Shown here piece by piece: positions 19,409 to 40,495 of a stretch of DNA of 64,000 nucleotides (position 1 is the stretch's first letter; each line of letters opens with the position of its first letter). The DNA lies in NCBI GenBank assembly GCA_037128175.1, contig JBAXWY010000004.1:1-64000 (forward strand), read 5' to 3'. The DNA comes from Methanothrix sp. Lineage in GTDB: Archaea; Halobacteriota; Methanosarcinia; Methanotrichales; Methanotrichaceae. The notes under the pieces are model-generated. The model saw only the letters and a program-made list of their open reading frames with translations. It searched no databases and was not told the origin of the DNA. A program made the position numbers and the translations under genes.

Positions 19409-19424
19409 CTATATTTAAATTATC
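19409..19424 (-). promoter_or_regulatory. Putative BRE/TATA promoter of A2
   Basis: Minus strand GATAATTTAAATATAG, 60-75 nt upstream of the start. Confidence 0.5.
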
Positions 19425-19647: not shown

Positions 19648-19679
19648 TCAAAACATTGGTTTATTTCGACCTCGCTTTA

Positions 19680-19853
19680 CTAGGAAGATAAAACACTCTC
19701 ACAGAATCCTGTACAGATTTCGACGGTGTAGCAGCCAGTCCAATTGTAACCAGCGCCACCAATGCCTTCATTCTTGCAAGCTGATAATACTTTTTCCTCC
19801 ATTGATCCTCTAACAAGTACTACCAGTTCAGGTCTTGTCCAGGTTTTCCTCAT
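19680..19853 (-). CDS. RiPP precursor, family A (A3), 57 aa, absent from the ORF track
   Basis: Manual translation: MRKTWTRPELVVLVRGSMEEKVLSA-CKNEGIGGAGYNWTGCYTVEICTGFCESVLSS*. A GAGGT SD-like sequence is upstream; the gene directly follows the rSAM gene. Confidence 0.85.
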   Translation of the reverse strand: MRKTWTRPELVVLVRGSMEEKVLSACKNEGIGGAGYNWTGCYTVEICTGFCESVLSS

Positions 19854-19898
19854 ACTCTTACCTCTTGATTACCTTTGGCCTAATAAACAAACCATCTA

Positions 19899-23089: not shown

Positions 23090-23099
23090 GGAGCAACCC

Positions 23100-24266: not shown

Positions 24267-24278
24267 ATCTGAATTCTC

Positions 24279-25277: not shown

Positions 25278-25279
25278 CC

Positions 25280-25612
25280 TCAGGCCTGAACAACCATCTT
25301 CCTCTCGAAGAGTACGTTCACCAATCCGGCAATGTCTTGCTCGATCTCACCAGGCTGGGCCTGGAAATCTGCATTCAGAGCCTTCGCCACCTCTCGCAGG
25401 CTCCTTTTGCCGTCAAGCCTCTCCCAGATGGCCCGGCCGGTCTCATTGAGGGTGTAGATCTCGTCCTCCATGTCTCCAATTCCTGATGTTAGGGGCACCA
25501 GGATGAACTCGCCTTCGATCTCCCTGGCCACAACGTCCTCGGATGCAATGTAGGCAGAATCAATTTCAACTTCGTGCACCATATATTCACCTTTTACGCA
25601 ATTGATATCCAC
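25280..25612 (-). CDS. PqqD-family RiPP recognition element (RRE)
   Basis: VVAREIEGEFILVP...YTLNETGRAIWERLDGKRSL...IEQDI pattern. The start may be at 25582. Confidence 0.9.
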   Translation of the reverse strand: MDINCVKGEYMVHEVEIDSAYIASEDVVAREIEGEFILVPLTSGIGDMEDEIYTLNETGRAIWERLDGKRSLREVAKALNADFQAQPGEIEQDIAGLVNVLFERKMVVQA

Positions 25613-25752
25613 ACAGAATTTTAAAGCTTTCCTTCAACCAGGATTATAAAGAGCCCTTTTTCAGGCGGTTGAAAGTGCATACGGAAGTCAAAAATTTAAG
25701 GGTTTGATGAAGACGGACACGCCGCCGTGGGCCAAAGGCCCGGAGATTTAAT

Positions 25753-25926
25753 CTATGATTGCCCAGTAGTGCTGCATCTGGAACATGGGGGAACTCCCTG
25801 CATGCAGGTCGTATATGTATTTGCAGGGAAACCGGCCGTGCCGCCTTTACAGAATGATAATACATCCTCCGGATCTGAACTTCTTGCCAAAACCAGCAAT
25901 TCAGGCTTAGCCCATAATTTCTTCAT
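25753..25926 (-). CDS. RiPP precursor, family A (A4)
   Basis: MKKLWAKPELLVLARSSDPEDVLSF-CKGGTAGFPANTYTTCMQGVPPCSRCSTTGQS; start trimmed to match the paralogs; GGAGG upstream. Confidence 0.82.
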   Translation of the reverse strand: MKKLWAKPELLVLARSSDPEDVLSFCKGGTAGFPANTYTTCMQGVPPCSRCSTTGQS

Positions 25927-26059
25927 GACATCCCTCCGATTAGACACTTATTCTTTTGCACTCGGGCTAAACTATATCAAATTATTCCTATGATCTATTT
26001 CTAAGCAATATAAAACAGACAGTAGGTTTAAAGCAGGGAATTGCAGATACGAAATCCAT

Positions 26060-26278
26060 ATGTCCACTAAATCTGCTTTGCTGTTTATCCAGCACGTCGG
26101 CAGAGACGAGTCCATCAAAGATAAGATCCGGGCACATGGTCTTGAATCTAACCTGGAGACCCTGGTAAGCATTGGCCTGGAAGCAGGATATTCATTCACG
26201 GCAAAGGAACTTATGGTCGCCTACAGACTGGACTGGAATGCACGCTGGATCTTCAATAGCTCCAGATCTTCAAGATGA
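26060..26278 (+). CDS. Nif11-like domain small protein
   Basis: MS..SA..F...V..D......I......LETLVSIGLEAGYSFTAKEL Nif11-type pattern, followed by the tail AYRLDWNARWIFNSSRSSR. Confidence 0.65.
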   Translation: MSTKSALLFIQHVGRDESIKDKIRAHGLESNLETLVSIGLEAGYSFTAKELMVAYRLDWNARWIFNSSRSSR

Positions 26279-26283
26279 ATGAA

Positions 26284-27429
26284 TCAAACATCAATGTCGT
26301 CAAAGTGCCCGGCCAGGCGCTGAGCCAGACCCGCGTAGCTTTGACCGCTCTGAATGAACTTGCGATAGAAGAACTCGGGATTGTCCAGAAATATCGGCTG
26401 AATGTAGCGGCGTAAGCTATCCAGATGTTTACCAATCCCCTGATGAATGAGGTGCTGATAAACCCTGCAACATTCACGATCAGAGGACGGTATATCGTAG
26501 CCGGCTAAATCCAACGGTTTCATGTCGAGCAAAGAGCTAACCACGTCGGCTGCTAAACTTCCGCTCTGCATGGCATAGCGAACTCCTTCGCCGCTGATGG
26601 GATCTACCAGGCGGGCAGCATCCCCAATCAGGCAGACCCGGCGCGTAGCAATCTGCTCATGTCCCGAATAAAATGGAATGGGGTGGCTGTACATTTGCAA
26701 AGATCGTATGCTTTTGGCAGGAAGGCTTTTGACCAAGAGGCTATTCATATCGCCCAAAATTCCCTTTTTTCTGTCCCAGGACACCACTCCACAGCTTAGT
26801 CTCCCCTCCCTCTTAGGAAAGATCCAGCCGTACCCCCTGGGAAGGCAGAAGTAATTGAATGTCGCTGTATCTTTATGGGATTCGTGCACCTCCGCCGTTA
26901 CATCAACCTCGGCGTCAATGGCAATTCCTGGATGCGAATCACTCTTAAGTCCCAGACAGCGGGCAGTCTTGCTCATAGCTCCGTCTGCTGCTATCAGAAA
27001 CTTAGACCGTACGACCTCTCCGCCCTTTCCCTGGACTGTAACCCCGTCAGCTTCCTCCTTGACAGCAGAGAGATCGAATCCCCCCCATAACTCTACATTG
27101 CCTCCTGCGGATGTTATGGCCAGGTCTACCAGGAAAGCATCAAGCCGGGAACGGTCCACCATATTAATTGGCGCATGTATGCAGAGATTGGGCTTTTCAT
27201 AATCGTAAAGTGATCTGGTCTGAGCTACTCTATTCTCCGTTATAGGGCTCAGGTCCAGGCCGAAGGATTCACCTGTATTTTCGGGAAGGGCCCCTCCGCA
27301 GGCTTTGTGGCGCGGCAGCTTCTCTTTCTCCAATATCGCCACGCTTATCCCGGTCCTGGCTAATCTGCATGCGGCCATCGCGCCCCCGGGACCGGCACCA
27401 ATGATGGCTACATCAACCTTAGCGGACAT
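26284..27429 (-). CDS. Geranylgeranyl-reductase-family FAD-dependent oxidoreductase
   Basis: DVAIIGAGPGG, EKEKLPRHKACGG, LIAADGA, GYGWIFPK, IGDAARLVDPISGEGVRYA. Start placed at MSAKV. Confidence 0.88.
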   Translation of the reverse strand: MSAKVDVAIIGAGPGGAMAACRLARTGISVAILEKEKLPRHKACGGALPENTGESFGLDLSPITENRVAQTRSLYDYEKPNLCIHAPINMVDRSRLDAFLVDLAITSAGGNVELWGGFDLSAVKEEADGVTVQGKGGEVVRSKFLIAADGAMSKTARCLGLKSDSHPGIAIDAEVDVTAEVHESHKDTATFNYFCLPRGYGWIFPKREGRLSCGVVSWDRKKGILGDMNSLLVKSLPAKSIRSLQMYSHPIPFYSGHEQIATRRVCLIGDAARLVDPISGEGVRYAMQSGSLAADVVSSLLDMKPLDLAGYDIPSSDRECCRVYQHLIHQGIGKHLDSLRRYIQPIFLDNPEFFYRKFIQSGQSYAGLAQRLAGHFDDIDV

Positions 27430-28504
27430 TATTTGCCACCGAGAAGCACTCCTCTGGCTTAAGCCATCTGTGGTTGAACCGAAGGTAAGCTTTTGCCTCC
27501 AGCGGCATTTCCGGTCGATAAATAAACTTAACGTGGCTGATGTCGCGTTCAAATATGCTTAACAGATCCGGTTGAAGGAGCGATTGTGAAATTATATAGG
27601 ACGGCCATGGAACTGGGCACGAGGTAGGTTCTGTAAATCCCTCCCAGGCAAGCACACCATCACGCTTATCCGGCGAACACAGCCCTGCCTCAACCAGATG
27701 GTCGAGGAGAAATGGCCAGTTGGGTCTTCTGTCTGGCCCTTCTCTACTAAGGCACGACAGCCCGATCTTTGGGCGAATGACCGATCCGATATCTACATGC
27801 ACCAAATTAATGTAGACGCCTAAATGGTCCAACTGCTCAATCAAAGCCTTAAGTTTGCCTTCATCCCAGGACCAGCCAATGTGCTTGAGCAGGGGAATTA
27901 TGCACCCTGAAGACTGAGGGATGAATTCGACGCGAAGGGTCTCAGTTTTGCGTGCCAGCATGGCACCAATATAGATCAGCCTGGCCTCATCAAAGGTGAA
28001 ACAACGGTGTAAGACATCCTGCCAGGGAAATGGCCCAGGCGCGCCGAACTGAATCTGCAATCCTTCGTCCAGAGCTGATTGCTTTTCGGCAGTCAGTCCA
28101 TCTATTTTCAATCTCAAAAAGACGGATGGAAGGCGCGGCCGGCAAGCCGGAGCATCTGCATCGATCTCAAAAAGAATGCTATCCACGGCATCATGGATGG
28201 AAGATGACTGTTCTTGCCATTGAGAGCATAACTTGTGAATCCCAGCCCATTTGGGACTGCCGGATAATCCTGACCCTATAATATGATTCATAAGGATATC
28301 CGGCTCTTCGTTGTCGGTGAGGATTTGCTGGGATAGATCCGCTTGCAAGGTGTTGTCACTTAGGCGGCACTCGATGAGGCCATTGACTATGGGCGGGAGG
28401 GCTCTGGCCATCTCGATCAGCTTCTGGGCGGATGATTCTGATACAAGCACGGGAGAAAGATTAGGGATTAGGACTTGAAGGGAGTCTGCCAGGGTGGGCC
28501 GCAT
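27419..28504 (-). CDS. Conserved hypothetical protein (possible prenyltransferase-barrel-like tailoring enzyme)
   Basis: 361-aa ORF overlapping the start of the reductase gene; motifs IECRL...ADL, LFEID, SHVKFIY...EAKAYL. The function is inference only. Confidence 0.45.
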   Translation of the reverse strand: MRPTLADSLQVLIPNLSPVLVSESSAQKLIEMARALPPIVNGLIECRLSDNTLQADLSQQILTDNEEPDILMNHIIGSGLSGSPKWAGIHKLCSQWQEQSSSIHDAVDSILFEIDADAPACRPRLPSVFLRLKIDGLTAEKQSALDEGLQIQFGAPGPFPWQDVLHRCFTFDEARLIYIGAMLARKTETLRVEFIPQSSGCIIPLLKHIGWSWDEGKLKALIEQLDHLGVYINLVHVDIGSVIRPKIGLSCLSREGPDRRPNWPFLLDHLVEAGLCSPDKRDGVLAWEGFTEPTSCPVPWPSYIISQSLLQPDLLSIFERDISHVKFIYRPEMPLEAKAYLRFNHRWLKPEECFSVANNVR

Positions 28505-28560
28505 AGATCAATTCACCAGAAACTGATATTCTCAAAAGCCTAATGCCAAAAAATAATGGA

Positions 28561-28740
28561 CTAGCTATTCGTGGATGTGGCACAAGCGGTGCAATGCCCA
28601 TCACTATCCTGCGCCAGGCACCCTCCATCAGTGGCAGACGCCCCAGAATTTCCGGCCACCCTGCATCCTGTGAGCACGTTTTCTTGAGCCAAACCTCTGG
28701 CCACGACAATTAATTTTGGTTTCTTCCATTCGTTCTGCAT
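28561..28740 (-). CDS. RiPP precursor, family A (A5)
   Basis: MQNEWKKPKLIVVARGLAQENVLTG-CRVAGNSGASATDGGCLAQDSDGHCTACATSTNS; AGGAG upstream. Confidence 0.85.
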   Translation of the reverse strand: MQNEWKKPKLIVVARGLAQENVLTGCRVAGNSGASATDGGCLAQDSDGHCTACATSTNS

Positions 28741-28757
28741 GCAATATCTCCTCTGAT

Positions 28758-28822
28758 TGATCCCGTTAAGAGCTACTCCAATCTCATGCAACTTCTGCTA
28801 TATTGAATTATCTCCGAGAGAC
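28758..28822. repeat. Duplicated 5' upstream/promoter region shared by A5 and A6 (second copy ~29148-29213)
   Basis: TGATCCC..TAAG.GCTA.TCCAATCT.ATGCAACTTCTGCTATAT.GAATTATCT is near-identical in both; it contains minus-strand GATAATTC[A/G]ATATAG. Confidence 0.8.
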
Positions 28823-28965
28823 CTGATCTTTTCCCTCCAATCCTCCTATTCAAGAAACTTGAGAAAAAACGATCCAGGGCATAGAATAGAAGCCGGGGAT
28901 GAGGCACTTAAATACTGCCCTACCACACGGATAATCCCAAGTGCCAAAGGCCAAGGGATATAGAG

Positions 28966-29130
28966 CTAGCTGTTGGAAACATTATCACATTGATTGGTAT
29001 CGTAAAAACAAGCATACCAAACACTATACGCTCCCTCCACACTCTCTGTCTTACACCCTGTTAACACGTTTTCCTCAGCTAAACCTCGTACCACGACAGT
29101 AAGTAGCGGTTTCTTCCATTCTTTCTTCAT
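28966..29130 (-). CDS. RiPP precursor, family A (A6), 54 aa, absent from the ORF track
   Basis: Manual translation: MKKEWKKPLLTVVVRGLAEENVLTG-CKTESVEGAYSVWYACFYDTNQCDNVSNS*. Confidence 0.85.
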   Translation of the reverse strand: MKKEWKKPLLTVVVRGLAEENVLTGCKTESVEGAYSVWYACFYDTNQCDNVSNS

Positions 29131-29310: not shown

Positions 29311-31152
29311 GTGCTGGTTCAGAACTCAGTGTGGCGAGGTAAATCATTGGATCTCTCATCTGCAAAGACCATAGGGAAAACTGCATCTGACAATGCTCTC
29401 CGTCTCAAACAGGCCGTAGACCTGGTCTGGAAGAGCGCACCAGGCTGGACCCTGGCAGGCATCGTCCTGATCGTCCTGCAGGGCAGCCTGCCCCTGGCCG
29501 CGCTTTATCTGATGAAGCTGATCGTAGACGGTGTCACCTCCGGGGCCGGCTTTGAGGCGGTCCTGCTCTGGATCGGCCTGGCGGGTGGTGTAGCCCTGTT
29601 GGTGGCTATCTGCAACTCGGCATCGAGTGTTGTCGGTGAAGCCCAATCGATCCTGGTCTCGGACAGCATCCAGGAGATCCTGCACGCCAAATCTGTGGAG
29701 GTCGATCTGGAGTACTACGAGAACCCAAAATACTACGAAATGCTGCATCGTGCCCAACAGGAGGGGCCCAGCAGGCCGACCCAGATCGTGAACGGCCTGC
29801 TTCAGGCGGGACGAAACGGCATATCCCTGGTTGCAGTCTTCGCTCTGATGGTTTCTGTTAACTGGCTGGTGGCCCTGCTCCTCTGTGTTGCCGCCCTGCC
29901 CAGCGCTCTGATCCAGGCCAGATATGCCAGGAAGCTCTACCTCTGGCAGCGCAGTTGCACCAGGAAGGAGAGAGCTGCCTGGTACCGACACTGGCTGCTC
30001 ACCAGCGATGGTTACGCTAAGGAGATCAGGCTCTTCAACCTGGGATCGCTATTTATGCGCCAGTACCGGGAAATTCGCGAGGTGGTGCGAAAGGAACGGC
30101 TGGCCATTATCTACCGCAGATCCGCCCTGGATCTTGCATCCCAGGCCGTCGCCCTGATCGCGGTCTTTGCCTCCCTGGCCTTTGTCGCCAACCAGGCACT
30201 ACTGGGAAGCATTACTCTGGGATCAATGGTGATGTACTTTGGTGCAGTGCAGCAGAGCCAGTCCTTCCTCTCCAGCTTTCTGAACAATCTGGCTAAGCTT
30301 TATGAGAGCAATCTTTTCCTGACCAATCTGCACGAATTCCTGCAACTGGAGCCCAAGGTCAGAGAACCGTCCCATCCTAAAAAAGTTCCCCACCCCATTA
30401 GGCAAGGCATCAGCTTCGAAAACGTCAGCTTCGGCTTTCCTGGCACTGGCCCCCTGGTCTTGAAGAACATAAACCTCCAGATCGGTCCCGGTCAGACGGT
30501 GGCCCTGGTGGGCGAGAACGGATCCGGCAAGAGCACTCTGATCAAACTCCTCTGTCGGCTCTATGATCCGCAGGAAGGCAGAATCGCCTTGGATGGGATC
30601 GACCTGCGAGACTTCAATACTGTGGACCTGCGGCGAGAGATGAGCATCATCTTCCAGGATTATGCCCGCTATAACCTGACAGCTTCTGAGAACATAAGGC
30701 TAGGCAACGCCCATGCGCCTCCAGCAAAAGAGAAGATCATGGCGGCGGCAGAGTGCTCCGGAGCGCATGAGTTTATATTTGGTCTGGATAAAAAATATGA
30801 AACCGTTTTGGGCAAATGGTTCGATGAAGGTACTGAGCTATCCGTGGGTCAGTGGCAGAAGGTTGCCCTAGCCAGAGCATTTCTGCGCGACTCCCAGATA
30901 ATAGTATTGGACGAGCCCACCAGCTCGCTCGACCCCAGGGCCGAGGACGGGGTCATCAGGAGGTTTCGCCGGCTGGCCGAAGGGAAGAATGCGATCATCA
31001 TAAGCCACCGCCTCTCCACGGTGACTTTAGCGGACTGCATTTACTTCTTGAAAGACGGCAGGATCGTCGAGAGCGGAACTCACCAGAAGCTGATGGAACA
31101 ATGCGGTGAATATGCCAGACTATTTGAGATCCAGGCCAGACATTATCGATGA
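29311..31152 (+). CDS. ABC exporter, fused permease/ATPase (no C39 peptidase domain)
   Basis: N-terminal TMs, GENGSGKST Walker A, LSVGQWQK signature, IIVLDEP Walker B, SHRL. Confidence 0.92.
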   Translation: MLVQNSVWRGKSLDLSSAKTIGKTASDNALRLKQAVDLVWKSAPGWTLAGIVLIVLQGSLPLAALYLMKLIVDGVTSGAGFEAVLLWIGLAGGVALLVAICNSASSVVGEAQSILVSDSIQEILHAKSVEVDLEYYENPKYYEMLHRAQQEGPSRPTQIVNGLLQAGRNGISLVAVFALMVSVNWLVALLLCVAALPSALIQARYARKLYLWQRSCTRKERAAWYRHWLLTSDGYAKEIRLFNLGSLFMRQYREIREVVRKERLAIIYRRSALDLASQAVALIAVFASLAFVANQALLGSITLGSMVMYFGAVQQSQSFLSSFLNNLAKLYESNLFLTNLHEFLQLEPKVREPSHPKKVPHPIRQGISFENVSFGFPGTGPLVLKNINLQIGPGQTVALVGENGSGKSTLIKLLCRLYDPQEGRIALDGIDLRDFNTVDLRREMSIIFQDYARYNLTASENIRLGNAHAPPAKEKIMAAAECSGAHEFIFGLDKKYETVLGKWFDEGTELSVGQWQKVALARAFLRDSQIIVLDEPTSSLDPRAEDGVIRRFRRLAEGKNAIIISHRLSTVTLADCIYFLKDGRIVESGTHQKLMEQCGEYARLFEIQARHYR

Positions 31153-32354
31153 ATTGGGGTAGCTATATGATCAGGACGGATAAAGAGGTCGAGCTGCTTT
31201 TGGCATGTTCAAGGCCACAGGTGGACAGCGAGAACGCAAAGAGAATCTGCGCTCTTCTCAAGGAGGAGATGGACTGGGCATGGATCATCAAGGCAGCTCG
31301 AACTCATGGCGTCATGCCTCTCTTGTACCGCCACCTCAAGGCAGCGTGTCCTGGGGCAGTTCCCCCTGAAATCTACCTCGATTTACAGAAGGTCTATCTC
31401 CTCAACACCAAGAGGAACTTGATATTTGCCAAAGAGCTGCTTGGCATCATAAAGGCCCTCTCGGAGCATGGGATTGAGGCAGTACCCTTTAAGGGACCGG
31501 CACTCTCCCTGATGGCTTACGGAGATATCACTTACAGGTCATTCTCAGATCTGGATATCATGGTTCATAAGGATGATGTACTTCCGGCCAAAGACATACT
31601 TATTTCCCTTGGTTATAAGCCTCAGGTCTGTTTTACTCCCCGGCAAGAAAGGAATATCATGGAGAACGTATGCGAATATAATTTTGTTCGTGAAAATCCT
31701 TCCATCCTGGTTGAGATTCATTGGCGGTTTCATACGGATTTTTACTCAGTTCCGGCTAGCCAAGGAATTTGGTCTCGCCTGGAGAGCATAAACCTGGAAG
31801 GAAAGCAGATCCCCAGTTTCTCGGCAAATGATCTGGTCTTGGTTCTCAGTTCTCATGCGGCCAGGCATGAATGGACCCAAATAAAATATGTAAGCGACTT
31901 TGCAGGATTAATTTCACACAGGCAAATAGATTGGGATAAAGTGGTGGACAGTGCTGATAGGATGGGCCTGTTGAGAATACTTCATATAAATCTCTTGCTT
32001 GCAAAGGACCTTCTGGATGCCAAACTTCCTCTGCAGATGATTGACGAAATAGGTAGAGACCGCTCCGCTAAAGAAATAGCTCTAAAAATGTCAGAAAAAC
32101 TATTTTCAGACACGAATGCGAATGGAGGATCTATTGAGAAGTATCTATTCTGGCCGAGAACTAGAGAACGTCTGAGAGATCGGGTGAAATATCTATTCCT
32201 GGTAGGCTTCAAACCCACACAAGTCGACTACGATGCCTTCCCATTGCCGGATTTTTTATATCCATTTTACTGGATCATCAGGCCCGTTCGCCTGCTCTGC
32301 AAATATCGGGTCAAAAAAAAGAATGTGACTCATCAGGAGGGAAAAACTTTATGA
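31149..32354 (+). CDS. Nucleotidyltransferase family protein (NTP_transf_5-like, as in lasso-peptide clusters)
   Basis: W......A..HGV.PL, PFKGPALS...YGD...RSFSDLDIMV, VEIHW motifs. Confidence 0.85.
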   Translation: MNWGSYMIRTDKEVELLLACSRPQVDSENAKRICALLKEEMDWAWIIKAARTHGVMPLLYRHLKAACPGAVPPEIYLDLQKVYLLNTKRNLIFAKELLGIIKALSEHGIEAVPFKGPALSLMAYGDITYRSFSDLDIMVHKDDVLPAKDILISLGYKPQVCFTPRQERNIMENVCEYNFVRENPSILVEIHWRFHTDFYSVPASQGIWSRLESINLEGKQIPSFSANDLVLVLSSHAARHEWTQIKYVSDFAGLISHRQIDWDKVVDSADRMGLLRILHINLLLAKDLLDAKLPLQMIDEIGRDRSAKEIALKMSEKLFSDTNANGGSIEKYLFWPRTRERLRDRVKYLFLVGFKPTQVDYDAFPLPDFLYPFYWIIRPVRLLCKYRVKKKNVTHQEGKTL

Positions 32355-32913: not shown

Positions 32914-34052
32914 AACCTGTTCTTCGCTTCGAAGACGATCTGACGGTCCCTCCGCCCGGCCTGATGAGGGTGCCGAATACCGTTGAGATCTGCATCACGG
33001 GGAGGTGCAACCTCTCCTGTCGCTATTGCTTTTATGCCGATGAGATGTCTGCCCTCAAAGACCTGCCAAAGGAACGCTGGCTATCATTTTTCGAAGAGAT
33101 GGGCTCGCTTGGAGTGCAGAGAGTCACACTCAGTGGAGGCGAAGCCTTCACAAGGCCCGATATCTTCGAGCTGATCGACGGCCTGATCGATAATAAGATG
33201 CGCTACAGCCTGCTTACCAACGGAACGCTGATCACCGAAGAGACGGTAGAAGCCTTTGGTGTGGGCAAGCGCCGTCTGCGCCTGGATTCGATACAGTTTT
33301 CCATTGACGGCTCATGCGCTGAAGTTCATGACGCCAGCCGCCCGCCTAAGAGCTTCGATCGAGCGCTGCGCGCCCTTCGGCTCATGAAAGAGCGCGCGTT
33401 TCCCCTGGCCGTTCGAGTGACTGTCAACCGCTACAATTTGCATGATCTGGAGAATATCGCCCGGCTGCTGCTGGAGGATGTAGGGCTGGCGTCCTTTGGC
33501 ACCAATGAGGCGGATCGCTTCGGATCGGCTAAATGCTATGGCCAGGATGTAGTGCTCACGCCCGCGGAGCGGTTAATAGCCATGCGGACACTGAAAGCTC
33601 TGGCGATGCGCTATCCCGGCCGGATCGCTGCTGCTGCCGGGCCGCTGGCCATGGCCAACATGATTGAAGATATCGAGAAGAGGCAAAGCCGCGGCGAGAC
33701 GGGAATGCCGGGCAGGGGAACGCTCTGCTCCTGCGGCGGAGCCTTCCAGAAGCTGGCAGTACTTCATGACGGGACAATAGTGCCCTGCAACCTTTTGCCG
33801 GACTTCAAAATGGGGGAGATCGGCAAGACGCCTCTCCTGGAAGCATGGCTGCACGGCCAGGCTATCAATGCTCTGCGCAAGAGAAGATCGATTCCATTGT
33901 CGTCTCTTCCTGAGTGTCGGGACTGCAAGTACACGGGCTTTTGCGCAGGGGGCTGTCCGGCTGTGATCTACGCAAAGTTGGGTAGGCTGGATACAATCGA
34001 TCCAGGTGTCTGCTACCGTCAATTCAAGGAGGCAGATCATGTCGCTTTGTGA
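32910..34052 (+). CDS. Radical SAM/SPASM protein, SynChlorMet ScmE-like
   Basis: ITGRCNLSCRYC, SGGE, CSCGG...DGTIVPC...CRDC.....CAGGCP; it sits between the PqqD genes and a second rSAM. Confidence 0.85.
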   Translation: MKPVLRFEDDLTVPPPGLMRVPNTVEICITGRCNLSCRYCFYADEMSALKDLPKERWLSFFEEMGSLGVQRVTLSGGEAFTRPDIFELIDGLIDNKMRYSLLTNGTLITEETVEAFGVGKRRLRLDSIQFSIDGSCAEVHDASRPPKSFDRALRALRLMKERAFPLAVRVTVNRYNLHDLENIARLLLEDVGLASFGTNEADRFGSAKCYGQDVVLTPAERLIAMRTLKALAMRYPGRIAAAAGPLAMANMIEDIEKRQSRGETGMPGRGTLCSCGGAFQKLAVLHDGTIVPCNLLPDFKMGEIGKTPLLEAWLHGQAINALRKRRSIPLSSLPECRDCKYTGFCAGGCPAVIYAKLGRLDTIDPGVCYRQFKEADHVAL

Positions 34053-35193
34053 TCTGCAAGTTGAGGAGCCTTTGACACCCCCGGCGAGCCTCCCTGTGGG
34101 TGTCCCGCCGCTCCGGGCCTTTTACCTGTACATGACCACCGGCTGCAACCTGCGCTGCCGCCACTGCTGGGTGGTTCCCAGATACGTAAAAGGCAGGCCT
34201 GATCCAGGTGAGGTGATCGACGCAAAGCTTTTGCAGCGAGCTGTCGAGGAGGCAAAGCCCCTGGGCCTATGCAGCGCCAAGATCACAGGCGGAGAGCCTT
34301 TGCTCCATCCCCAATTTAAAGAGATTGTGAAGATGCTCTCCGACCAGGGTCTGGGCCTGAACATGGAGACCAATGGGACGCTGATGACACCACAAATCGC
34401 CCGCTGGCTGAAGGAAGAGACCCGTGTGGGTTTCATATCCGTGAGCCTGGATGGCGCAGATGCCGCGGCGCATGACAGCTTCCGGGGCGTGCCCGGTGCC
34501 TTCGATTCAGCGCTCTTGGGATTGGATGCACTGTTCGGGGCGGGTTATCGGAATGTTCAGGTGATCATGAGCGTCTATCGAGGCAACGCCCTGCAAATCG
34601 ATGATGTTGTGGCCCTGGCCAGAGCGCACGGCGCGAATTCGGTCAAGTTTACACCGGTCACCAATACCGGTCGCGGCGCAGCTCTGCATGAAGGGGGAGA
34701 GGCCCTTGATCTGCCGGAGCGTATGGCTCTGGCAAAATACGTCCAGGATGATCTGGCCGGACGGGCGGGCATCAGTCTGGTGATCAACCTGCCGCCGGCT
34801 CTTCGAACATTTGACAGGTTGTGGCAAAGCCGTGGGCGCACGGGTGATTGCGGCGTGGACCGCATACTGGGCATCCTGGGGAGCGGCGAGATCGCCATGT
34901 GCGGCATTGGCCAGACCATTCCTGAGCTGGTGTACGGACGACTGGGCGCAGACAGCATCCGGGATATCTGGCTGGGCCACCCCAAGTTACTGGAGCTGCG
35001 CCGGGAGATGGAGGATGTGGCGGCCTATCCGGGCATCTGCGGGTCTTGCCTTCATGCTAAATCCTGCCGGACGGGGTGCGTGGCCAACAACTACCAGCAA
35101 GCAGGCCGCATGGTCTGCCCTTCGGCTTCCTGCACTGAGGCGGAGAAGCGCGGTCTCTTCCCGAAGGCACGGCAAAGGTCATATTCGAGATAA
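34039..35193 (+). CDS. Radical SAM/SPASM protein, SynChlorMet ScmF-like (copy 1)
   Basis: YMTTGCNLRCRHCW, KITGGEPLLHP, CG...ILGIL..G.IAMCGIG, CGSC.....CRTGCVA; AGGAGG before the ATG at 34039. Confidence 0.87.
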   Translation: MSLCDLQVEEPLTPPASLPVGVPPLRAFYLYMTTGCNLRCRHCWVVPRYVKGRPDPGEVIDAKLLQRAVEEAKPLGLCSAKITGGEPLLHPQFKEIVKMLSDQGLGLNMETNGTLMTPQIARWLKEETRVGFISVSLDGADAAAHDSFRGVPGAFDSALLGLDALFGAGYRNVQVIMSVYRGNALQIDDVVALARAHGANSVKFTPVTNTGRGAALHEGGEALDLPERMALAKYVQDDLAGRAGISLVINLPPALRTFDRLWQSRGRTGDCGVDRILGILGSGEIAMCGIGQTIPELVYGRLGADSIRDIWLGHPKLLELRREMEDVAAYPGICGSCLHAKSCRTGCVANNYQQAGRMVCPSASCTEAEKRGLFPKARQRSYSR

Positions 35194-35229: not shown

Positions 35230-35436
35230 ATGGACTGCATAAAGAATGGATCCAGTAGCGAAGGTTCAAGCGAGAAAAAGGATTACGAGCCTCCCAAGGC
35301 CATGCGCCTGGGCGATATGCGTAACGGGGCAGGCGTTTGTTCTAATACAGGCAGCGGCGATGGTGAATCATGTTCTGGCGATGGCAATTCGGCCGCAGGG
35401 GGATGTTTTGGCGACGGCAATAATGTGAGTTTGTGA
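35230..35436 (+). CDS. RiPP precursor, family B (B1)
   Basis: MDCIKNGSSSEGSSEKKDYEPPKAMRLGDMRNGAG-VCSNTGSGDGESCSGDGNSAAGGCFGDGNNVSL; GAGGTG SD. Confidence 0.85.
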   Translation: MDCIKNGSSSEGSSEKKDYEPPKAMRLGDMRNGAGVCSNTGSGDGESCSGDGNSAAGGCFGDGNNVSL

Positions 35437-35466
35437 AAAGAATTTTTGCAGTGGCTTTATAACAAA

Positions 35467-35604
35467 GCGCTTGACCCTGGCCGATGACATAAGCCTTAGG
35501 ACCGCGGCAGAAAATGGCCCCCCAGGCTGGCCGTCGATCGGTCGGGCTATGTCAGCTTTGGCTGAAAAAAGGCAGAGGGCGGCTGATTGTGGCCGCAGTA
35601 GACG
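35467..35604 (+). pseudogene. Degenerate copy of the 5' end of the ScmC-like gene
   Basis: GCGCTTGACCCTGGCCGATGACATAAGCCTT...GCCGTCGATC...GGGCTATG...TGATTGTGGCCGCAGT aligns by eye to ~38260-38400. Confidence 0.7.
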
Positions 35605-35670
35605 TGCCTCAATTCGAAGATATTTCCAGGAATCGAGAAAAGGGGGTAAATTTGGAAGGGATGATGGTCT

Positions 35671-36855
35671 TTGAAGTCTGAACACCAGGTAGAGCATTTG
35701 GCATCAGCCTGTGATGAGCCCAGGCCTTTGGCAGAGGCAGCCCTTGACCTTCCCAAAGGCGTCCCGCCGCTGCGCTCGCTTCAGCTCTATCTCTCAAATG
35801 GCTGCAACCTCAAGTGCCGTCACTGCTGGGTGAACTCAAAATACATAAGCTGTGAGCCGGAATCATGCGACCTGATCGATGTGGATCTCCTGCGCATAGC
35901 CGTGGCCGAGGCCAGGACGCTGGGGCTTTACAGAGCGGTTCTCACCGGTGGAGAGCCCCTGCTTCATCCACGATTTCGCGAGGTGGTGGAGATGCTCTCC
36001 GCAGAGGGCCTCTTCCTCTGTCTGGTCACAAACGGCACGCTTCTTACCGGGGAGATGGCCGGCTGGCTGAAGAACTGCCCCACATTAACCTCGATCTGCC
36101 TCAGCCTTGATGGAGCGGATGCAAAGACGCATGACGAATTTCGCGGCGTCTCCGGTGCCTTTGAGGCGGCTTTGCGGGGACTTGATCATCTGGCGGATGC
36201 CGGTCACAAAAATCTGCAGGTGATATGCTGCATCAACCGCCTAAATCTTCATCAGGCCGATGATCTGGTGGCCCTGGCAGAAGATCATGGTGCAACCTCC
36301 GTCAAGTTCACCCCCCTTGGAAACAAGGGACGAGGGGCGGCATTACATGCTCAGCAGGTGGGCCTCAGCCTGGAGGAGCTCATTGCTTTTGAGAGGCACG
36401 TGCGCACAGAGCTTGCCAAAGAGACCAAGCTGCCTCTCTTTGTCAGCCTCTTTCCTCCTGCCTTTCTTCCCCAAAAGGAGCTGTGGCAGAGCAATGGAGT
36501 TATCGGCACCTGTGGTGTCATCACCAATCTGGGAATCCTGGGAAGTGGCGAGATCTCCCTGTGCGGCATTGGGAGGAGCGTTCCGGATATGGTCTTTGGA
36601 CGGCTGGGCGCGGACAGCATCCGGGATATCTGGCTTTGCCACCCCAGGGTACTGGAGCTTCGCCGGGAGCTCACGGATGTGGCGGCCTATCCGGGCATAT
36701 GCGGGGACTGCATCCATGCCGGAGCATGCCGTACGGGATGCGTGGCCAACAACTACGTGGACCAGAGCCGCCTGGTCTGGCCCTCGGCTTTTTGCGCCGA
36801 GGCCGAGGAGCGCGGTATCTTTCCGGAGGCACGGCGAAAGTCATCTTCAAGATAA
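35671..36855 (+). CDS. Radical SAM/SPASM protein, ScmF-like (copy 2)
   Basis: SNGCNLKCRHCW; close paralog of 34039-35193, with a near-identical C-terminal part (GRLGADSIRDIWL...AYPGICG.C.HA..CRTGCVANNY). Confidence 0.87.
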   Translation: MKSEHQVEHLASACDEPRPLAEAALDLPKGVPPLRSLQLYLSNGCNLKCRHCWVNSKYISCEPESCDLIDVDLLRIAVAEARTLGLYRAVLTGGEPLLHPRFREVVEMLSAEGLFLCLVTNGTLLTGEMAGWLKNCPTLTSICLSLDGADAKTHDEFRGVSGAFEAALRGLDHLADAGHKNLQVICCINRLNLHQADDLVALAEDHGATSVKFTPLGNKGRGAALHAQQVGLSLEELIAFERHVRTELAKETKLPLFVSLFPPAFLPQKELWQSNGVIGTCGVITNLGILGSGEISLCGIGRSVPDMVFGRLGADSIRDIWLCHPRVLELRRELTDVAAYPGICGDCIHAGACRTGCVANNYVDQSRLVWPSAFCAEAEERGIFPEARRKSSSR

Positions 36856-36881
36856 TCATTTTGCAAAGAGGTGCGAAAGGG

Positions 36882-37091
36882 ATGAACAACATAAAAAAAG
36901 GAGCTGGTAGTGAAGGTTTGAACGAGAAGAAGGCTTATGAACCTCCAAAGGCAATTCGCCTGGGAGATATGTGTGATGGAGAAGGCAGGATGTGTACTTC
37001 GTCTGGCAGCGGCGATTCAAACTGTGACACAACCGGCAATTCGGCAAGCCTCCTTTGCAGAACCGGCAATAGTGGCCCGAACGACGGGTGA
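36882..37091 (+). CDS. RiPP precursor, family B (B2)
   Basis: MNNIKKGAGSEGLNEKKAYEPPKAIRLGDMCDGEG-RMCTSSGSGDSNCDTTGNSASLLCRTGNSGPNDG; hidden at the end of track ORF 36483-37091; GAGGTG SD. Confidence 0.85.
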   Translation: MNNIKKGAGSEGLNEKKAYEPPKAIRLGDMCDGEGRMCTSSGSGDSNCDTTGNSASLLCRTGNSGPNDG

Positions 37092-37190
37092 TTGTGGCCG
37101 CAGTGAACTGGCCGAGAAGTGTGGTCTCTTCCCGGCGGCGCGGTGAAAGTCATCTTCACAATAATCATTTTGCAAAGAGGTGTGAAAGAT

Positions 37191-37406
37191 ATGAACAACA
37201 TAAAAAAAGGATCAAGCAGCGAAGGTTTGAACGGGAAGTTGGCCTACGAGCCACCCATGGCGTTGCGGCTGGACGATATGCGTGAGGGAGAAGGCACTTC
37301 TTGTTCATCATCAGGCAGTGGCAATGCCACCTGTCAAACAAACGGCAATTTAGCAAGCTCCCGCTGCAGCACATCCGGCAATAGTGGCCCGAGTGGCCCG
37401 TCATGA
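37191..37406 (+). CDS. RiPP precursor, family B (B3)
   Basis: MNNIKKGSSSEGLNGKLAYEPPMALRLDDMREGEG-TSCSSSGSGNATCQTNGNLASSRCSTSGNSGPSGPS; GAGGTG SD. Confidence 0.85.
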   Translation: MNNIKKGSSSEGLNGKLAYEPPMALRLDDMREGEGTSCSSSGSGNATCQTNGNLASSRCSTSGNSGPSGPS

Positions 37407-37618
37407 ACGGATCTACAAAGCGTCTTGCTCTGTCCGACGGCACCAGCCATCGGATTGCTGCAGGAGATGACCTCTCCCGGCCGGCCGTCGATCACCAGGG
37501 CCGGACTTATGTAGCTTCATTCGGCCAAAGGTCGCAGGCGGATGGTTATGGCCGCAGTGAACAGGCCGAGAAGTGCGGTCTCTTCCTGAAGTCACGGCAA
37601 AGGTCATATTCAAGATAA
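37403..37618 (+). pseudogene. Chimeric remnant ORF: ScmC-like N-terminus fused to ScmF-like C-terminus
   Basis: MNGSTKRLALSDGTSHRIAAGDDLSRPAVD matches ScmC MNRAAMRLTLADGTSLRIAAGDDLSRPAVD; AEKCGLFLKSRQRSYSR matches ScmF1 AEKRGLFPKARQRSYSR. Confidence 0.8.
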
Positions 37619-37654
37619 TCATTCAGCATAAAATAGAAAAGAGGTGCGAAAGAG

Positions 37655-37864
37655 ATGGACAGCATAAAGAAAGGATCCGGTAGCGAAGGTTTGAACGGGA
37701 AGTTGGCCTACGAGCCTCCCAAGGCTATGCGCCTGGACGATATGCGTGAGGGAGAAGGCGTTTCTTGTTTATCATCCGGCAGTGGCAATGCCTCCTGTCA
37801 AGCAAACGGCAATTCGGCAACCTTCACCTGCGCATCATCAGGCAATGGTGTCCTGGATGGATGA
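37655..37864 (+). CDS. RiPP precursor, family B (B4)
   Basis: MDSIKKGSGSEGLNGKLAYEPPKAMRLDDMREGEG-VSCLSSGSGNASCQANGNSATFTCASSGNGVLDG; GAGGTG SD. Confidence 0.85.
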   Translation: MDSIKKGSGSEGLNGKLAYEPPKAMRLDDMREGEGVSCLSSGSGNASCQANGNSATFTCASSGNGVLDG

Positions 37865-37963
37865 TTGTGGCCGCAGTGCACAGTCCGAGGAGCGCGGTCT
37901 CTTCCCGGCGGCGCGGCGAAAGTCATCTTCAAGATAATCATTGAGCAAAGAGGTGCGAAAGGG

Positions 37964-38173
37964 ATGAACAACATAAAAAAAGGATCTTGTAGCGAAAGTT
38001 TGAACGGGAAGTTGGCCTACGACCCCCCCAAGGCTATGCGCCTGAACGATATGCGTAGCGGGGCAGGCGGGCCGGGTTGCTTCAATACTGGCAGCAGTAA
38101 TAGTTCCAGTTGTTCTACAGGCAGTAGTGCTAGTGGTCTGGGATGCATTTCATCAGGCAATAGCCCCAGATAA
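37964..38173 (+). CDS. RiPP precursor, family B (B5)
   Basis: MNNIKKGSCSESLNGKLAYDPPKAMRLNDMRSGAG-GPGCFNTGSSNSSSCSTGSSASGLGCISSGNSPR; GAGGTG SD. Confidence 0.85.
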   Translation: MNNIKKGSCSESLNGKLAYDPPKAMRLNDMRSGAGGPGCFNTGSSNSSSCSTGSSASGLGCISSGNSPR

Positions 38174-38242
38174 CGGGGCAGGCTCTTGTTATGGAGGCAG
38201 TGGCGATGTTGACTATTGCGAAGTTGGCAATGGCGTGCTGAC

Positions 38243-39784
38243 ATGAATCGAGCTGCAATGCGCTTGACTCTAGCCGATGGCACAAGCCTTCGGATTGCTG
38301 CAGGAGATGACCTCTCCCGGCCAGCCGTCGATCTGTTGGGACGGGCTATGCAGCTATGCCCAGCCGAGGGCGATGAGCGGTTGATTGTGGCCGCGGTGGA
38401 TGAAGCAGGGGAGCCACAGCCATCCGGCAGCCCACAGGTTTGCATTCTCAGACCGTCTAATAGCGACGGCGATGTTACCGGTCAGGCTGTGGAGCTCTCG
38501 CTGGCCATAGCCAGGGATGTCCAATCTCGGGGAGGCGTTCTGCTGCATGGCGCTCTGGCGAAACGCGGTGGCTATGGCGTGATCATGGCCGCGCCGGGAT
38601 GCACCGGCAAGAGTACAGCCTCCAGGCGTCTGCCTTTGCCCTGGGAATCGCTTTCCGATGATGCCACGCTCGTGGTGCAGGACGGCATGGGCCGCTACTT
38701 TGCTCACCCCTGGCCCACCTGGAGCCTCTTCTGGGAAGGATCCGGCGGCACCTGGCCCACGGAGAAGGCTGTGCCCTTAAAGGCGATCTTCTTCCTCGCT
38801 CAGGCCCCTCTGGAGAAAGTCGAGCCGATTAACCAGACTGTGGCCGCTGCCATGCTCATGCTGTCTGTGGAGCAGGTCTCCAGGTCCATGACTTATCGCC
38901 TTTCGCCAGAAGAGGTGCATCAGGTCCACAGCCGGCAGCTTACAAATGTCTCGGCCCTGGCAAAAGCCGTGCCCGCATTCATTCTGCAACTGAGCCTGAC
39001 CGGTCAATTCTGGGTGGAGATGGAGCGCGCCCTGCAAGGCCTGCAGGGCCTCGATAAGCAGGTGGTTTTGCATCCATCTCCCGCGCCTCCTATCTCGGCA
39101 GGTTCATTTTTCGGGGGCTCGCTTCCCATTGTCCTCACCGGCAATAGCATGAATCCCTTCCTGCGCTCGGGCGACCTATTGGAGGTCATGCTTCTGAGCC
39201 GTGAGCTTTCGCGTGGCGACGTGATCTACTTCCAGTCTCCCGACGAAGAAGGAATGGTTGTGCATAGAGTCGTGCGCCTCAATGCTACTGGGGCCCAAAC
39301 CCGCGGAGACAACAACCCTACCGATGATCCAAAACAGGTGCCATTCGATGCGATCGTGGGACGGGTAGTCGCGGCCCACCGTGGCCAAAGACGCTTTTGT
39401 GTCCCAGGAGGACGGCAGGGCCTGGCCAGATCTTGCCTGGGAAAAGCCCGGCGTCAGATTCGATCGAGCTTGGCGAGGCTCTTTGGCAGCGCCTACCGCG
39501 GCCTGGCCCGGACGGGATTGGGAAATCGCCTCCTTCCGGTGCCTTTGAGGCCGCGCATGGTGGCATTCGGCTCAACTCCTCGCCAACATTTGAAGCTCGT
39601 CTGTGGCCAAAGCGAGATAGGGCATTATGACGACCGGGCAGGGCAGTGGAAAATCCGGCTACCCTTCCGGCTGATCGTGGATGAATCGGCTCTGGGGCGG
39701 GCAGCCGCTCAGGTGGACGAGGCAAGGACGCAGGCCAGAGACAAGACCCTGGAGAGACTGCGCATGCGTGCCGGCAATGCATAG
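38243..39784 (+). CDS. ScmC-like HPr-kinase-related P-loop protein fused to an S24/S26 peptidase domain
   Basis: LLHGAL...IMAAPGCTGKST...LSDD...AHPWPTWS; then LTGNSMNPFL..GD...RGDVIYF...VVHRVV...TRGDNN..DD. Confidence 0.8.
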   Translation: MNRAAMRLTLADGTSLRIAAGDDLSRPAVDLLGRAMQLCPAEGDERLIVAAVDEAGEPQPSGSPQVCILRPSNSDGDVTGQAVELSLAIARDVQSRGGVLLHGALAKRGGYGVIMAAPGCTGKSTASRRLPLPWESLSDDATLVVQDGMGRYFAHPWPTWSLFWEGSGGTWPTEKAVPLKAIFFLAQAPLEKVEPINQTVAAAMLMLSVEQVSRSMTYRLSPEEVHQVHSRQLTNVSALAKAVPAFILQLSLTGQFWVEMERALQGLQGLDKQVVLHPSPAPPISAGSFFGGSLPIVLTGNSMNPFLRSGDLLEVMLLSRELSRGDVIYFQSPDEEGMVVHRVVRLNATGAQTRGDNNPTDDPKQVPFDAIVGRVVAAHRGQRRFCVPGGRQGLARSCLGKARRQIRSSLARLFGSAYRGLARTGLGNRLLPVPLRPRMVAFGSTPRQHLKLVCGQSEIGHYDDRAGQWKIRLPFRLIVDESALGRAAAQVDEARTQARDKTLERLRMRAGNA

Positions 39785-39796: not shown

Positions 39797-40495
39797 ATGC
39801 AGTTATTCGCCCTACCTACGTGCATGTTGGATGAGTTCATCCGTTACACTGCCCTGCAGCGCGATCAAGCTCCTTTGGCCTCTCTATTGATTTACCTGAA
39901 GCGAAAAGGAGGCTATGTTCAGCTCAATCAGATCTGGCGGGAGAATGGACCCACCGGGGGCGGCCCCTTCTGGAACCAGACCACCCTTTTAAACAAGCTG
40001 GACAAGCTGGAGCGCCTGGGGATTGTCAGCATGGAGCGGCGAATTCTGCCCTCGCCCCGCGATGAGGCCAAAAAAAAGACCAACACCTTCTACCGGATAA
40101 GTCCCGAAACACCCCTTTATCCTTACATCTTCGGCATGCTCAAGATCTACCGGGAGGAGCCGGATAAATATTCCTCGGAACTGGTGGAAAAGCCCCTCGA
40201 TCATCTAAGCGATCTGGCAGGCCGCTGTGCCTCCGGCGACCCGCTGGTGGGCCGGGAGCTGGATGTGGCCATGGAGCTGATCGGCGAGGTCTTCTCTGTG
40301 GGAGGCGACGAGGTCAAGAGGATGATCAAGGAGAGGATGGCCAGAAGGGGCATGATCAGGGATCGCAGGAATGAGCTGCCGGAAAATGCCCCCGCAGAAA
40401 TAAAAATAAAGCCGAAGAGGGCCGGGGCAGAGGCAAAAAAATCCACGAAGAAAGAAAAGACGAAACCCATGTCCGAAGAAGAGGATTCAGAGTAG
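39797..40495 (+). CDS. Hypothetical protein with a winged-helix-like N-terminus
   Basis: LLIYLKR...LNQIW...QTTLLNKLDKLERLGIV..ERR...TFYRI pattern; low-complexity Lys/Glu tail. Confidence 0.45.
   Translation: MQLFALPTCMLDEFIRYTALQRDQAPLASLLIYLKRKGGYVQLNQIWRENGPTGGGPFWNQTTLLNKLDKLERLGIVSMERRILPSPRDEAKKKTNTFYRISPETPLYPYIFGMLKIYREEPDKYSSELVEKPLDHLSDLAGRCASGDPLVGRELDVAMELIGEVFSVGGDEVKRMIKERMARRGMIRDRRNELPENAPAEIKIKPKRAGAEAKKSTKKEKTKPMSEEEDSE

Follow-up and report, generated by a model that had tools for sequence, protein, structure and literature searches.

Five cysteine-repeat peptides of a SynChlorMet-like cassette in Methanothrix: probable precursors from a divergent branch of the ScmA family

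The window examined here is a 64,000-nucleotide stretch of Methanothrix sp. DNA, part of contig C4 of a 2.96-Mb genome that is 99.8% complete. On its plus strand, from 29.3 to 39.8 kb, lies a cassette of genes for an ATP-binding cassette (ABC) transporter, an NTP_transf_5 protein, two PqqD proteins, one ScmE-like and two ScmF-like enzymes, five small peptides (B1–B5) and an ScmC–peptidase fusion. We conclude that B1–B5 are very probably precursors of peptides that are synthesized ribosomally and modified post-translationally (RiPPs), and that they belong, as a divergent branch, to the SynChlorMet cassette's ScmA family. That cassette is defined computationally, by the models TIGR04248 (ScmD), TIGR04249 (ScmC), TIGR04250 (ScmE), TIGR04251 (ScmF) and TIGR04252 (ScmA). 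An initial annotation of the window had held that the cassette's precursor was unidentified. This was mistaken: NCBIfam lists TIGR04252 as ‘SCM_precur_ScmA, SynChlorMet cassette protein ScmA’. The precursor class thus already has a model, and the locus is a variant of a predicted system. What is new is a widespread variant unseen by TIGR04252, with an ScmC–peptidase fusion, two PqqD proteins, precursors that follow ScmF, and leader and repeat motifs of another kind. The window locus itself has a five-gene precursor array and a duplicated ScmF.

Five paralogous peptides and their neighbours

The peptides are encoded by five open frames of 68–71 amino acids (aa).

35230..35436, plus strand: candidate precursor peptide B1, 68 aa; GAGGTG at 35216; profile match, E 2.7e-16
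36882..37091, plus strand: candidate precursor peptide B2, 69 aa; GAGGTG at 36868; alignment and profile
37191..37406, plus strand: candidate precursor peptide B3, 71 aa; GAGGTG at 37177; alignment and profile
37655..37864, plus strand: candidate precursor peptide B4, 69 aa; GAGGTG at 37641; alignment and profile
37964..38173, plus strand: candidate precursor peptide B5, 69 aa; GAGGTG at 37950; alignment and profile

In each, a GAGGTG Shine–Dalgarno sequence ends 8 nt upstream of the ATG; over the window this hexamer occurs 44 times against 30.2 expected. B2–B5 are 51–58% identical to B1 in the alignment. The five are paralogs, and hence do not count as five independent events. The earlier description of five paralogs of about 70 aa, each with a GAGGTG signal, therefore stands; its placing of all five between ScmF and ScmC needs one correction, since the second ScmF copy splits B1 from B2. 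All five aligned peptides have the leader motif proposed there, Y[ED]PPxAxRLxDMxxG[AE]G, and the three core cysteines, given as 9–10 residues apart, were likewise found, with measured Cys-to-Cys steps of 10 or 11. Invariant in the alignment are Y19, P21, P22, A24, R26, L27, D29, M30, G33, G35 and the three core cysteines. Read by eye, the alignment gives C-x3-G-[SN] after 13 of the 15 core cysteines and C-x2-G-[SN] after the other two; B1, B2 and B5 have an additional, non-conserved cysteine in the leader.

How have these genes evolved? The leader, of about 35 aa, is conserved and the core variable, and the G-x-G of the leader sits one to three residues before the first core cysteine. The pairwise ratio of non-synonymous to synonymous substitution (dN/dS) is 0.14–0.59 in the leader, below 1 in all 10 pairs, and 0.25–1.42 in the core, where three pairs yield no estimate because dS is saturated. 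A conserved leader joined to a fast-evolving core that keeps its cysteines is the usual pattern of RiPP precursors, multi-copy ones included. The leader ratios, set against those of the core, and a whole-genome profile specificity (described below) go beyond chance, and the B genes look like true coding genes. The locus also shows the general marks of RiPP precursors: short genes by their maturases, a conserved leader, a variable core, and a RiPP recognition element (RRE), peptidase and exporter in the cluster.

The B frames might instead have been artefacts of longer overlapping frames of 202, 95 and 102 aa. We reject this, since both the homology and the Shine–Dalgarno sequences begin at the short starts. 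Public gene calls (P0001, P0002 and P0023) take the short starts as well, and the N-terminal extras of the three longer frames are translated, out-of-frame remnants of ScmF 3′ ends.

Four metatranscriptome runs, from one study and no more than two samples, include contigs with mismatch-free pieces over B1, B3, B4, B5 and part of B2; further pieces cover patches of the remaining cassette and leave other parts of it bare, from which we draw nothing. Such RNA-library contigs may contain DNA, give neither strand nor level and are no proof of transcription, so that we take them as a weak hint of B-gene expression.

If B1–B5 serve this cassette, do similar peptides accompany it elsewhere? The initial annotation had proposed looking for B-like frames beside other scm genes. 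We assembled 12 ScmC-containing loci (L001–L012) and four control loci having the peptidase domain only, and used six-frame open reading frames (ORFs) of each. A hidden Markov model (HMM) of the five peptides matches 11 of the 12 ScmC loci, from archaea and bacteria alike (E 2e-18 to 7e-6), and none of the four controls (best E 2.8). The related loci come from Methanotrichaceae, Methanoregulaceae and Methanomicrobiales and from metagenome-assembled genomes labelled Deltaproteobacteria, Elusimicrobia, WOR-3 and Chloroflexota; the closest two, from Methanotrichaceae and Methanothrix, are 84% and 74% identical over ScmC. Nine loci have the peptide between ScmF and ScmC, two of them with it on the opposite strand; another has it after ScmC, and another 3.6 kb away and apparently broken.

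One of the 12, a Methanomicrobiales locus (L012, 4346–4651, minus strand), has its B-type peptide split into an ORF with the leader and first repeat and another with further repeats. ScmC is likewise in two ORFs there, which suggests a decaying copy or assembly errors.

A wider, descriptive count drew on 401 genomes from each of two phyla, with ScmC in 21 and 15 genomes. In the archaeal phylum a peptide found by a three-round profile lies within ±1.5 kb of 17 of the 20 ScmC places above cut-off, a number that includes the window itself and the second cassette of the same genome. In the bacterial phylum it does so at 10 of 20, with one more found by a Cys-period scan only. Within the whole 2.96-Mb genome, the iterated profile run over six-frame ORFs of at least 30 aa gives six significant matches: B1–B5 and a peptide on contig C57 (E 2.6e-10) directly upstream of the ScmC of a canonical SynChlorMet cassette. 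The next-best match in the genome has E 0.044. The earlier proposal that the B peptides are substrates of the cassette is thus upheld as highly probable: the Scm models are the best ones for the neighbouring genes, and homologous peptides adjoin ScmC and ScmF homologs elsewhere.

Relation to ScmA and to the SynChlorMet enzymes

Are B1–B5 members of the ScmA family? The TIGR04252 model spans 49 positions and has a cut-off of 35 bits. The peptide adjoining the best ScmC of the archaeal sample (L054; ScmC 525 bits) passes it at 63.7 bits. It is the only one to pass among 20 ScmC-adjacent peptides tested, and at E ≤ 0.01 the model matches 5 of the 146 best family representatives. It gives no match at E ≤ 1 to the C57 peptide. 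Since even this peptide, beside a canonical ScmC, fails, we conclude that TIGR04252 is narrow and misses most of the family. Across five genomes with B-type loci its matches are all sub-threshold, with a B-type ORF on top in two (19.7 and 15.2 bits), a weak test given that at E ≤ 1 the model also matches in 9 of 14 control genomes. Over the 401 genomes of the bacterial phylum it gives two matches at E ≤ 0.001, neither above the cut-off.

The profiles themselves tie the two types together. Aligned by hhalign, 16 B-type and 19 canonical-type peptides match over 68 columns, the YxxP leader among them, with a probability of 97.3% (E 2.5e-11). The canonical alignment is headed by the peptide that passes TIGR04252 at 63.7 bits. 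The iterated profile recovers that same peptide at E 1.1e-4. Detectable homology, a YxxP leader and periodic cysteines, as expected at the level of an ScmA superfamily, are all found, in sequences of biased and repetitive composition. On the profile–profile link and the common architecture of leader and Cys period we place B1–B5 as divergent ScmA-family precursors.

The family is large. Of 1.84 billion cluster representatives scanned with HMMER, 860 match at E ≤ 1e-3, and 45 do so at E ≤ 1e-10, which puts the family at 860 or more clusters when grouped at 50% identity; the 21 database relatives found by a word-indexed search are unnamed or called ‘hypothetical protein’. In 166 of 167 retrieved sequences, on which the following statistics rest, the leader reads Y (98%), E, P/A, P (+3, 100%), R/K, A/V, M/L, R (+7, 89%), L (79%). 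The two glycines of G-x-G are kept in 86% and 98%, the latter being that at +16. The first cysteine stands at +18 from the tyrosine in 106 of the 166, and 137 have three to five core cysteines. Following a cysteine, glycine occupies +4 in 60–72%, then come Ser/Asn, Gly/Ser and Asp/Ala. Among 47 unique peptides of both types the Cys–Cys step is 10 in 68 of 158 cases and 11 in 51, together 119 of 158. Repeat number varies from two to nine among homologs at a constant period of 10–11 residues, and cysteine is the only residue invariant in every repeat.

The other genes of the cassette, with the gene remnants between them, are as follows.

29311..31152, plus strand: ABC transporter, fused permease and ATPase, probable exporter; Pfam ABC_tran 113 bits, ABC_membrane
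31149..32354, plus strand: NTP_transf_5 family protein, an uncharacterised nucleotidyltransferase; PF14907, 205.7 bits
32351..32644, plus strand: PqqD-like protein 1, ScmD-like, probable leader-binding RRE; PF05402 51.3 bits, TIGR04248 50.7 bits
32641..32913, plus strand: PqqD-like protein 2; PF05402 35.8 bits, TIGR04248 38.6 bits
32910..34052, plus strand: ScmE-like radical S-adenosylmethionine (SAM)/SPASM enzyme; TIGR04250, Pfam Radical_SAM and SPASM
34006..35193, plus strand: ScmF-like radical SAM/SPASM enzyme, copy 1; TIGR04251, 343.2 bits
35471..35620 (limits approximate), plus strand: out-of-frame remnant similar to the ScmC gene's 5′ end; translation, and a copy of repeat D4 at 35568-35608
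35671..36855, plus strand: ScmF-like radical SAM/SPASM enzyme, copy 2; TIGR04251, 307.7 bits
37402..37620, plus strand: ScmC 5′-end remnant (37402-37507), then an ScmF 3′-end remnant; repeat D5
38216..39784, plus strand: ScmC-like P-loop (PEPCK/HprK-like) domain fused to an archaeal/ER-type (endoplasmic reticulum) signal peptidase (S26), 522 aa; TIGR04249, TIGR02228

The true start of the ScmC–peptidase gene is likely the ATG at 38243. Of the 12 related loci, 8 have an ABC transporter homolog and seven an NTP_transf_5 homolog, the latter also adjoining the canonical cassette on C57; the PqqD genes are paired in seven of the eight related loci whose sequence covers that region. The two ScmF-like copies are 57% identical. 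The ABC protein has MsbA-like and bacteriocin-exporter-like NCBIfam matches, every one below its cut-off. Proteins encoded at 39797-40495 (232 aa) and 27419-28504 (361 aa) flank the cassette; neither has a Pfam or NCBIfam family, and their positions are kept only in the Methanothrix locus L002.

The initial annotation had asked that the flanking enzymes be checked against the Scm models. The Scm models are indeed by far their best NCBIfam matches (373.5 bits for ScmE, with the next family at 122.5, and 343.2 for ScmF copy 1, with the next at 129.5); the curated cut-offs are passed by ScmC alone. The ScmC-like protein scores 169.5 bits with TIGR04249 (171.3 in a second scan; cut-off 125), over model positions 115–292 only, and its N-terminal 95 or so residues differ from the model. 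Its peptidase domain passes TIGR02228 (sigpep_I_arch) at 55.3 bits, cut-off 51.85. Same-type ScmE orthologs from three other loci score 366.3, 384.7 and 336.4 bits, likewise under the 400 required by TIGR04250. With ScmE, both ScmF copies and both PqqD proteins under the curated cut-offs, we conclude that the window cassette is a sister type and not the SynChlorMet equivalog. Failure of the Scm models was a refuting condition of the initial annotation, and it holds in part.

The genome offers a direct comparison, for its canonical cassette lies across two contig ends (C57:16-5933 and C58:29-1926; L079 and L078). ScmC (291.8 bits, full length) and ScmD (114.1 bits) are on C57 and ScmF (557.9 bits) on C58, while ScmE scores 189.6 and 357.5 bits over the contig break. 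The signal peptidase has a gene of its own there (54.0 bits, cut-off 51.85), and an ABC transporter and an NTP_transf_5 gene are present too. The C57 peptide (C57:2344-2565, minus strand) has 74 aa, five Cys repeats and a YEKPELLDL leader. Common to both systems are the Cys-repeat precursor, PqqD, a pair of dissimilar radical SAM/SPASM enzymes and ScmC, the P-loop protein, and both peptides follow the plan of a YxxP leader and then a cysteine each 10–11 residues. The window cassette differs from SynChlorMet in that its ScmC is without the first 114 or so model positions and is fused to the peptidase, its PqqD genes are two rather than one, its precursors come after ScmF rather than before ScmC, its leader is YEPPxAxRL where the canonical one is YEKPxLIDL, and its precursor genes are five, with ScmF duplicated. 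The window cassette is, then, a second, paralogous type made up of the same kinds of parts as the genome's canonical cassette.

Several results weigh against this assignment of B1–B5. One of the 12 ScmC loci (L008) has no peptide, its ScmF–ScmC gap being 60 nt on a contig of only 2771 nt, and in the bacterial phylum 9 of the 20 ScmC places are without a peptide in their 1.5-kb flanks. The co-occurrence counts are not independent, since related genomes are kin and the flanks short. TIGR04252 gives no match to B1–B5 at E ≤ 0.01, and for B4 none at E ≤ 1. Sequences so repetitive and so rich in Gly, Ser and Cys may have raised the hhalign figure of 97.3%. Among the enzymes, the ScmE-like protein reaches 373.5 bits against a cut-off of 400, the ScmF-like copies 343.2 and 307.7 against 400 and the PqqD proteins 50.7 and 38.6 against 100. 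The glycine after the cysteine is at +4 in the B type and at +3 in 73% of the wider family; as its position differs, the two peptide types may carry different modifications. Finally, the chemistry of modification, probably one Cys cross-link per repeat, is argued by analogy.

Proposed maturation and rival explanations

What might the cassette do to its peptides? In our proposal, one or both of the stand-alone PqqD proteins would bind the YxxP leader and present the core to the ScmE and ScmF radical SAM/SPASM enzymes. The Pfam radical SAM domain starts at about residue 28 in ScmE and 42 in ScmF; this leaves no room for an N-terminal RRE, so that the PqqD proteins are the likely leader binders. 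A complex prediction with PqqD1, PqqD2 and B4, run without controls, scored 0.10 against a mark of 0.32, and we draw nothing from it. Each repeat would be modified once by ScmE and ScmF, the likeliest reaction being a bond between the cysteine sulfur and a carbon atom of some neighbouring residue in a sactionine- or ranthionine-type thioether, and three rings per B peptide would result. One modification per repeat is plausible since repeat number varies at a constant period of 10–11; the three iterative modifications per peptide proposed from the triplicated motif are accordingly read here as plausible.

The later steps would fall to the other proteins. The ScmC P-loop domain and the NTP_transf_5 protein might add or activate something with ATP or another nucleoside triphosphate (NTP), the signal-peptidase domain fused to ScmC would cut the leader off after G-x-G, with small residues at −3 and −1, and the ABC transporter would export the product. 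Signal-peptidase-type enzymes prefer small residues at −1 and −3, a preference that the near-invariant G-x-G before the first cysteine suits, and it is from this that we infer the cleavage site. The peptidase domain aligns with human SEC11A/C over the SM-P, HR and GDNN..DD motifs, and all 10 orthologs compared keep the Walker A sequence GxxGKST and the peptidase S, H and D at the SEC11 catalytic positions unchanged. The structure that AlphaFold2 predicts for the fusion has a mean pLDDT (predicted local distance difference test) of 73.4. Its best Foldseek matches are phosphoenolpyruvate (PEP) carboxykinases (E 3.5e-7; template-modelling score about 0.3, for a multi-domain query), whose fold we take to be common to the HPr kinase family; weak HprK-related matches agree with this kinship.

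The thioether is the part of this proposal most exposed to a rival. The B peptides could well be the substrates and the modification be other than a Cys thioether: an epimerisation, C–C or ether cross-links at the conserved Asn, Ser or Asp, a conversion of cysteine, or free cysteines serving the mature peptide as metal ligands. We regard this as possible rather than probable. Going by sequence, the characterised enzymes nearest to ScmE and ScmF (WgkB, AhbD, PqqE, MftC, SkfB and BlsE) are chemically diverse, the pairing of two radical SAM families with two PqqD proteins suggests two kinds of step, and the Gly, Ser/Asn and Asp/Ala after the cysteine are conserved like many leader positions. Cysteine alone, on the other hand, recurs without exception in the repeats, and periodic Cys cores adjoining SPASM enzymes have repeatedly proved to be thioether substrates, as with SCIFF/CteB, freyrasin/PapB and QhpC/QhpD. 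The CrpA/CrpC system of a methanogen, reported to form ranthionines, also speaks for the thioether (PMC13692751, in the passages on that system).

Two other rivals concern which peptides are used. Could only one of the five B genes be functional, the others being decaying by-products of segmental duplication? The duplicated segments did leave dead ScmC and ScmF fragments as well, and the core pair B3/B4 has the dN/dS of 1.42. All five frames are nevertheless open, with the 8-nt Shine–Dalgarno spacing, the full leader motif and the three core cysteines kept; the leader ratio is below 1 in every pair, and variable cores behind a conserved leader are what multi-copy RiPP precursors usually look like. 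We therefore hold decay to be very unlikely. Least credible of all is that the true substrates are peptides of another set, family A, and that the B peptides have some other role. Two family A genes (28561-28791 and 28966-29130, minus strand) are immediately upstream of the ABC gene and divergent from it, here and in L002, and the C-terminal halves of family A peptides contain cysteines. Their homologs occur, however, in L002 only among the 12 related loci, as against 11 of 12 for the B type, and additional copies of family A border another radical SAM/PqqD cluster (18–26 kb) and occur on contig C22; that cluster is the likelier partner.

For B1–B5 as ScmA-family substrates, a bolder extension may be entertained, tentatively and as a whole. 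B-type peptides would be a large unannotated RiPP class of anaerobes, in which two different radical SAM/SPASM enzymes, served by one PqqD apiece, act on every unit; the C-x3-G-[S/N]-x-[D/A] unit of 10–11 residues would become an undescribed cross-link or Cys-derived structure, followed by phosphorylation or nucleotidylation (by the ScmC P-loop and NTP_transf_5) and then by leader cleavage through a dedicated cytoplasmic domain of the signal-peptidase type. If true, this would mean a new modification chemistry and a SEC11-type fold newly used as a RiPP leader peptidase. The locus in any case makes a test set of five natural three-repeat substrates, two candidate leader binders, three enzymes and a kinase-like/peptidase fusion. 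With a new precursor profile, annotation pipelines could put a name to hundreds of small genes now unnamed or uncalled. In a Methanothrix-like methanogen the product's role could be antagonism, metal binding or signalling.

Known systems, the origin of the array and a second cluster

How does the cassette compare with better known systems? Ranthipeptide and sactipeptide pathways (freyrasin/PapB, SCIFF/CteB and subtilosin/AlbA) share with it a SPASM maturase, leader-dependent recognition and repeated Cys units. They differ in that the RRE of the window cassette is a separate protein, its maturases are of two families, and its scores with their maturase models are far below those with Scm (for ScmE, PapB 65.7, AlbA 73.7 and StsB 92.4 bits). 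The prerequisites of a sactipeptide or ranthipeptide, core cysteines and SPASM enzymes, are present in the window, the thioether itself being a candidate judged from sequence.

Lasso-peptide systems have YxxP leaders with PqqD-like RREs, and HprK-like lasso-peptide kinases with neighbouring nucleotidyltransferases. The window cassette resembles them in its YxxP leader and PqqD protein and in having a P-loop HprK/PEPCK-like protein and NTP_transf_5 in the cluster, and differs in its Cys-repeat cores and radical SAM maturases. We reject a lasso-peptide reading, as NCBIfam and Pfam scans of 17 proteins from 27.4 to 40.5 kb found no lasso cyclase or B2 protease family among them. A seven-Cys B-type homolog (L060:138-491, minus strand) has a leader that weakly matches NF033521 (lasso_leader_L3; 14.4 bits, cut-off 19), which would fit a lasso-like YxxP recognition motif.

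The experimental work found to come closest is on a methanogen, Methanococcus voltae, whose SPASM radical SAM enzyme CrpC is reported to put ranthionine cross-links into the repeated-Cys protein CrpA (PMC13692751, passages on CrpA/CrpC). The likeness lies in a methanogen SPASM enzyme acting with a repeated-Cys substrate. By the same passages CrpC differs in belonging to TIGR04463 with a predicted RRE of its own, and CrpA in being large, with a 17-residue repeat and a C-x-x-Q/D motif. They make no mention of ScmC or PqqD, and ‘HPr’ is absent from the main text, while its supplements may list Scm-type enzymes (PMC13692751). A survey of about 15,000 RiPP radical SAM proteins (PMC10288494) has neither the Scm families nor their organisms in its main text; its supplements, too, could list them. 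In the library searched, no paper on the SynChlorMet cassette, TIGR04248–TIGR04252, or ScmA with radical SAM was found, and broader searches likewise gave none on this cassette.

How did five precursor genes come to stand together? A repeat search returned several families, D1, D3, D4 and D5 among them. D1 is a 263-nt unit present four times and spanning B2 to B5, the B1 region is an 84% identical repeat of the B4 region, and in D5 the ScmC 5′-end copy after B3 (37402-37507) is 80% identical to 38242-38347. At the protein level, ORF 35471-35674 resembles the ScmC N terminus in translation, and ORF 37385-37615 matches ScmC (phmmer, E 2.5e-9). The repeat families and the ScmC and ScmF remnants together indicate, as read from the sequence, how the array arose: a segment made up of the ScmF 3′ end, the Shine–Dalgarno sequence, the peptide and the ScmC 5′ end was duplicated in tandem. 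Such an array would supply five different cores to one enzyme set.

A short repeat with the core TGATTGTGGCCGCAGTG occurs five times, at 35568-35608, 37073-37113, 37527-37567, 37846-37886 and 38366-38406. Its sites are downstream of peptide genes, with one copy within ScmC, and it looks like a recombination junction of the segmental duplications.

The window also contains a second RiPP-like cluster, on the minus strand from 18044 to 29130.

19899-21101, 21098-23089 and 23100-24266, minus strand: three radical SAM genes
24279-25277, minus strand: fusion of an S24-like peptidase with a GNAT acetyltransferase
25280-25612, minus strand: PqqD gene
26284-27552, minus strand: oxidoreductase dependent on flavin adenine dinucleotide (FAD)
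18044-18226, 19167-19349, 19680-19853, 25753-25947, 28561-28791 and 28966-29130, minus strand: about six small ORFs of family A

The family A ORFs have a common N terminus of the type WKKPxLxVVxRGLAxENVLTGC and belong to no NCBIfam or Pfam family. Within the 663-aa radical SAM protein of this cluster, at 21305-21604 on the minus strand, the ScmC model finds a weak match (34.9 bits, model positions 121–228), and from this match an ScmC-like P-loop module may be fused to that maturase.

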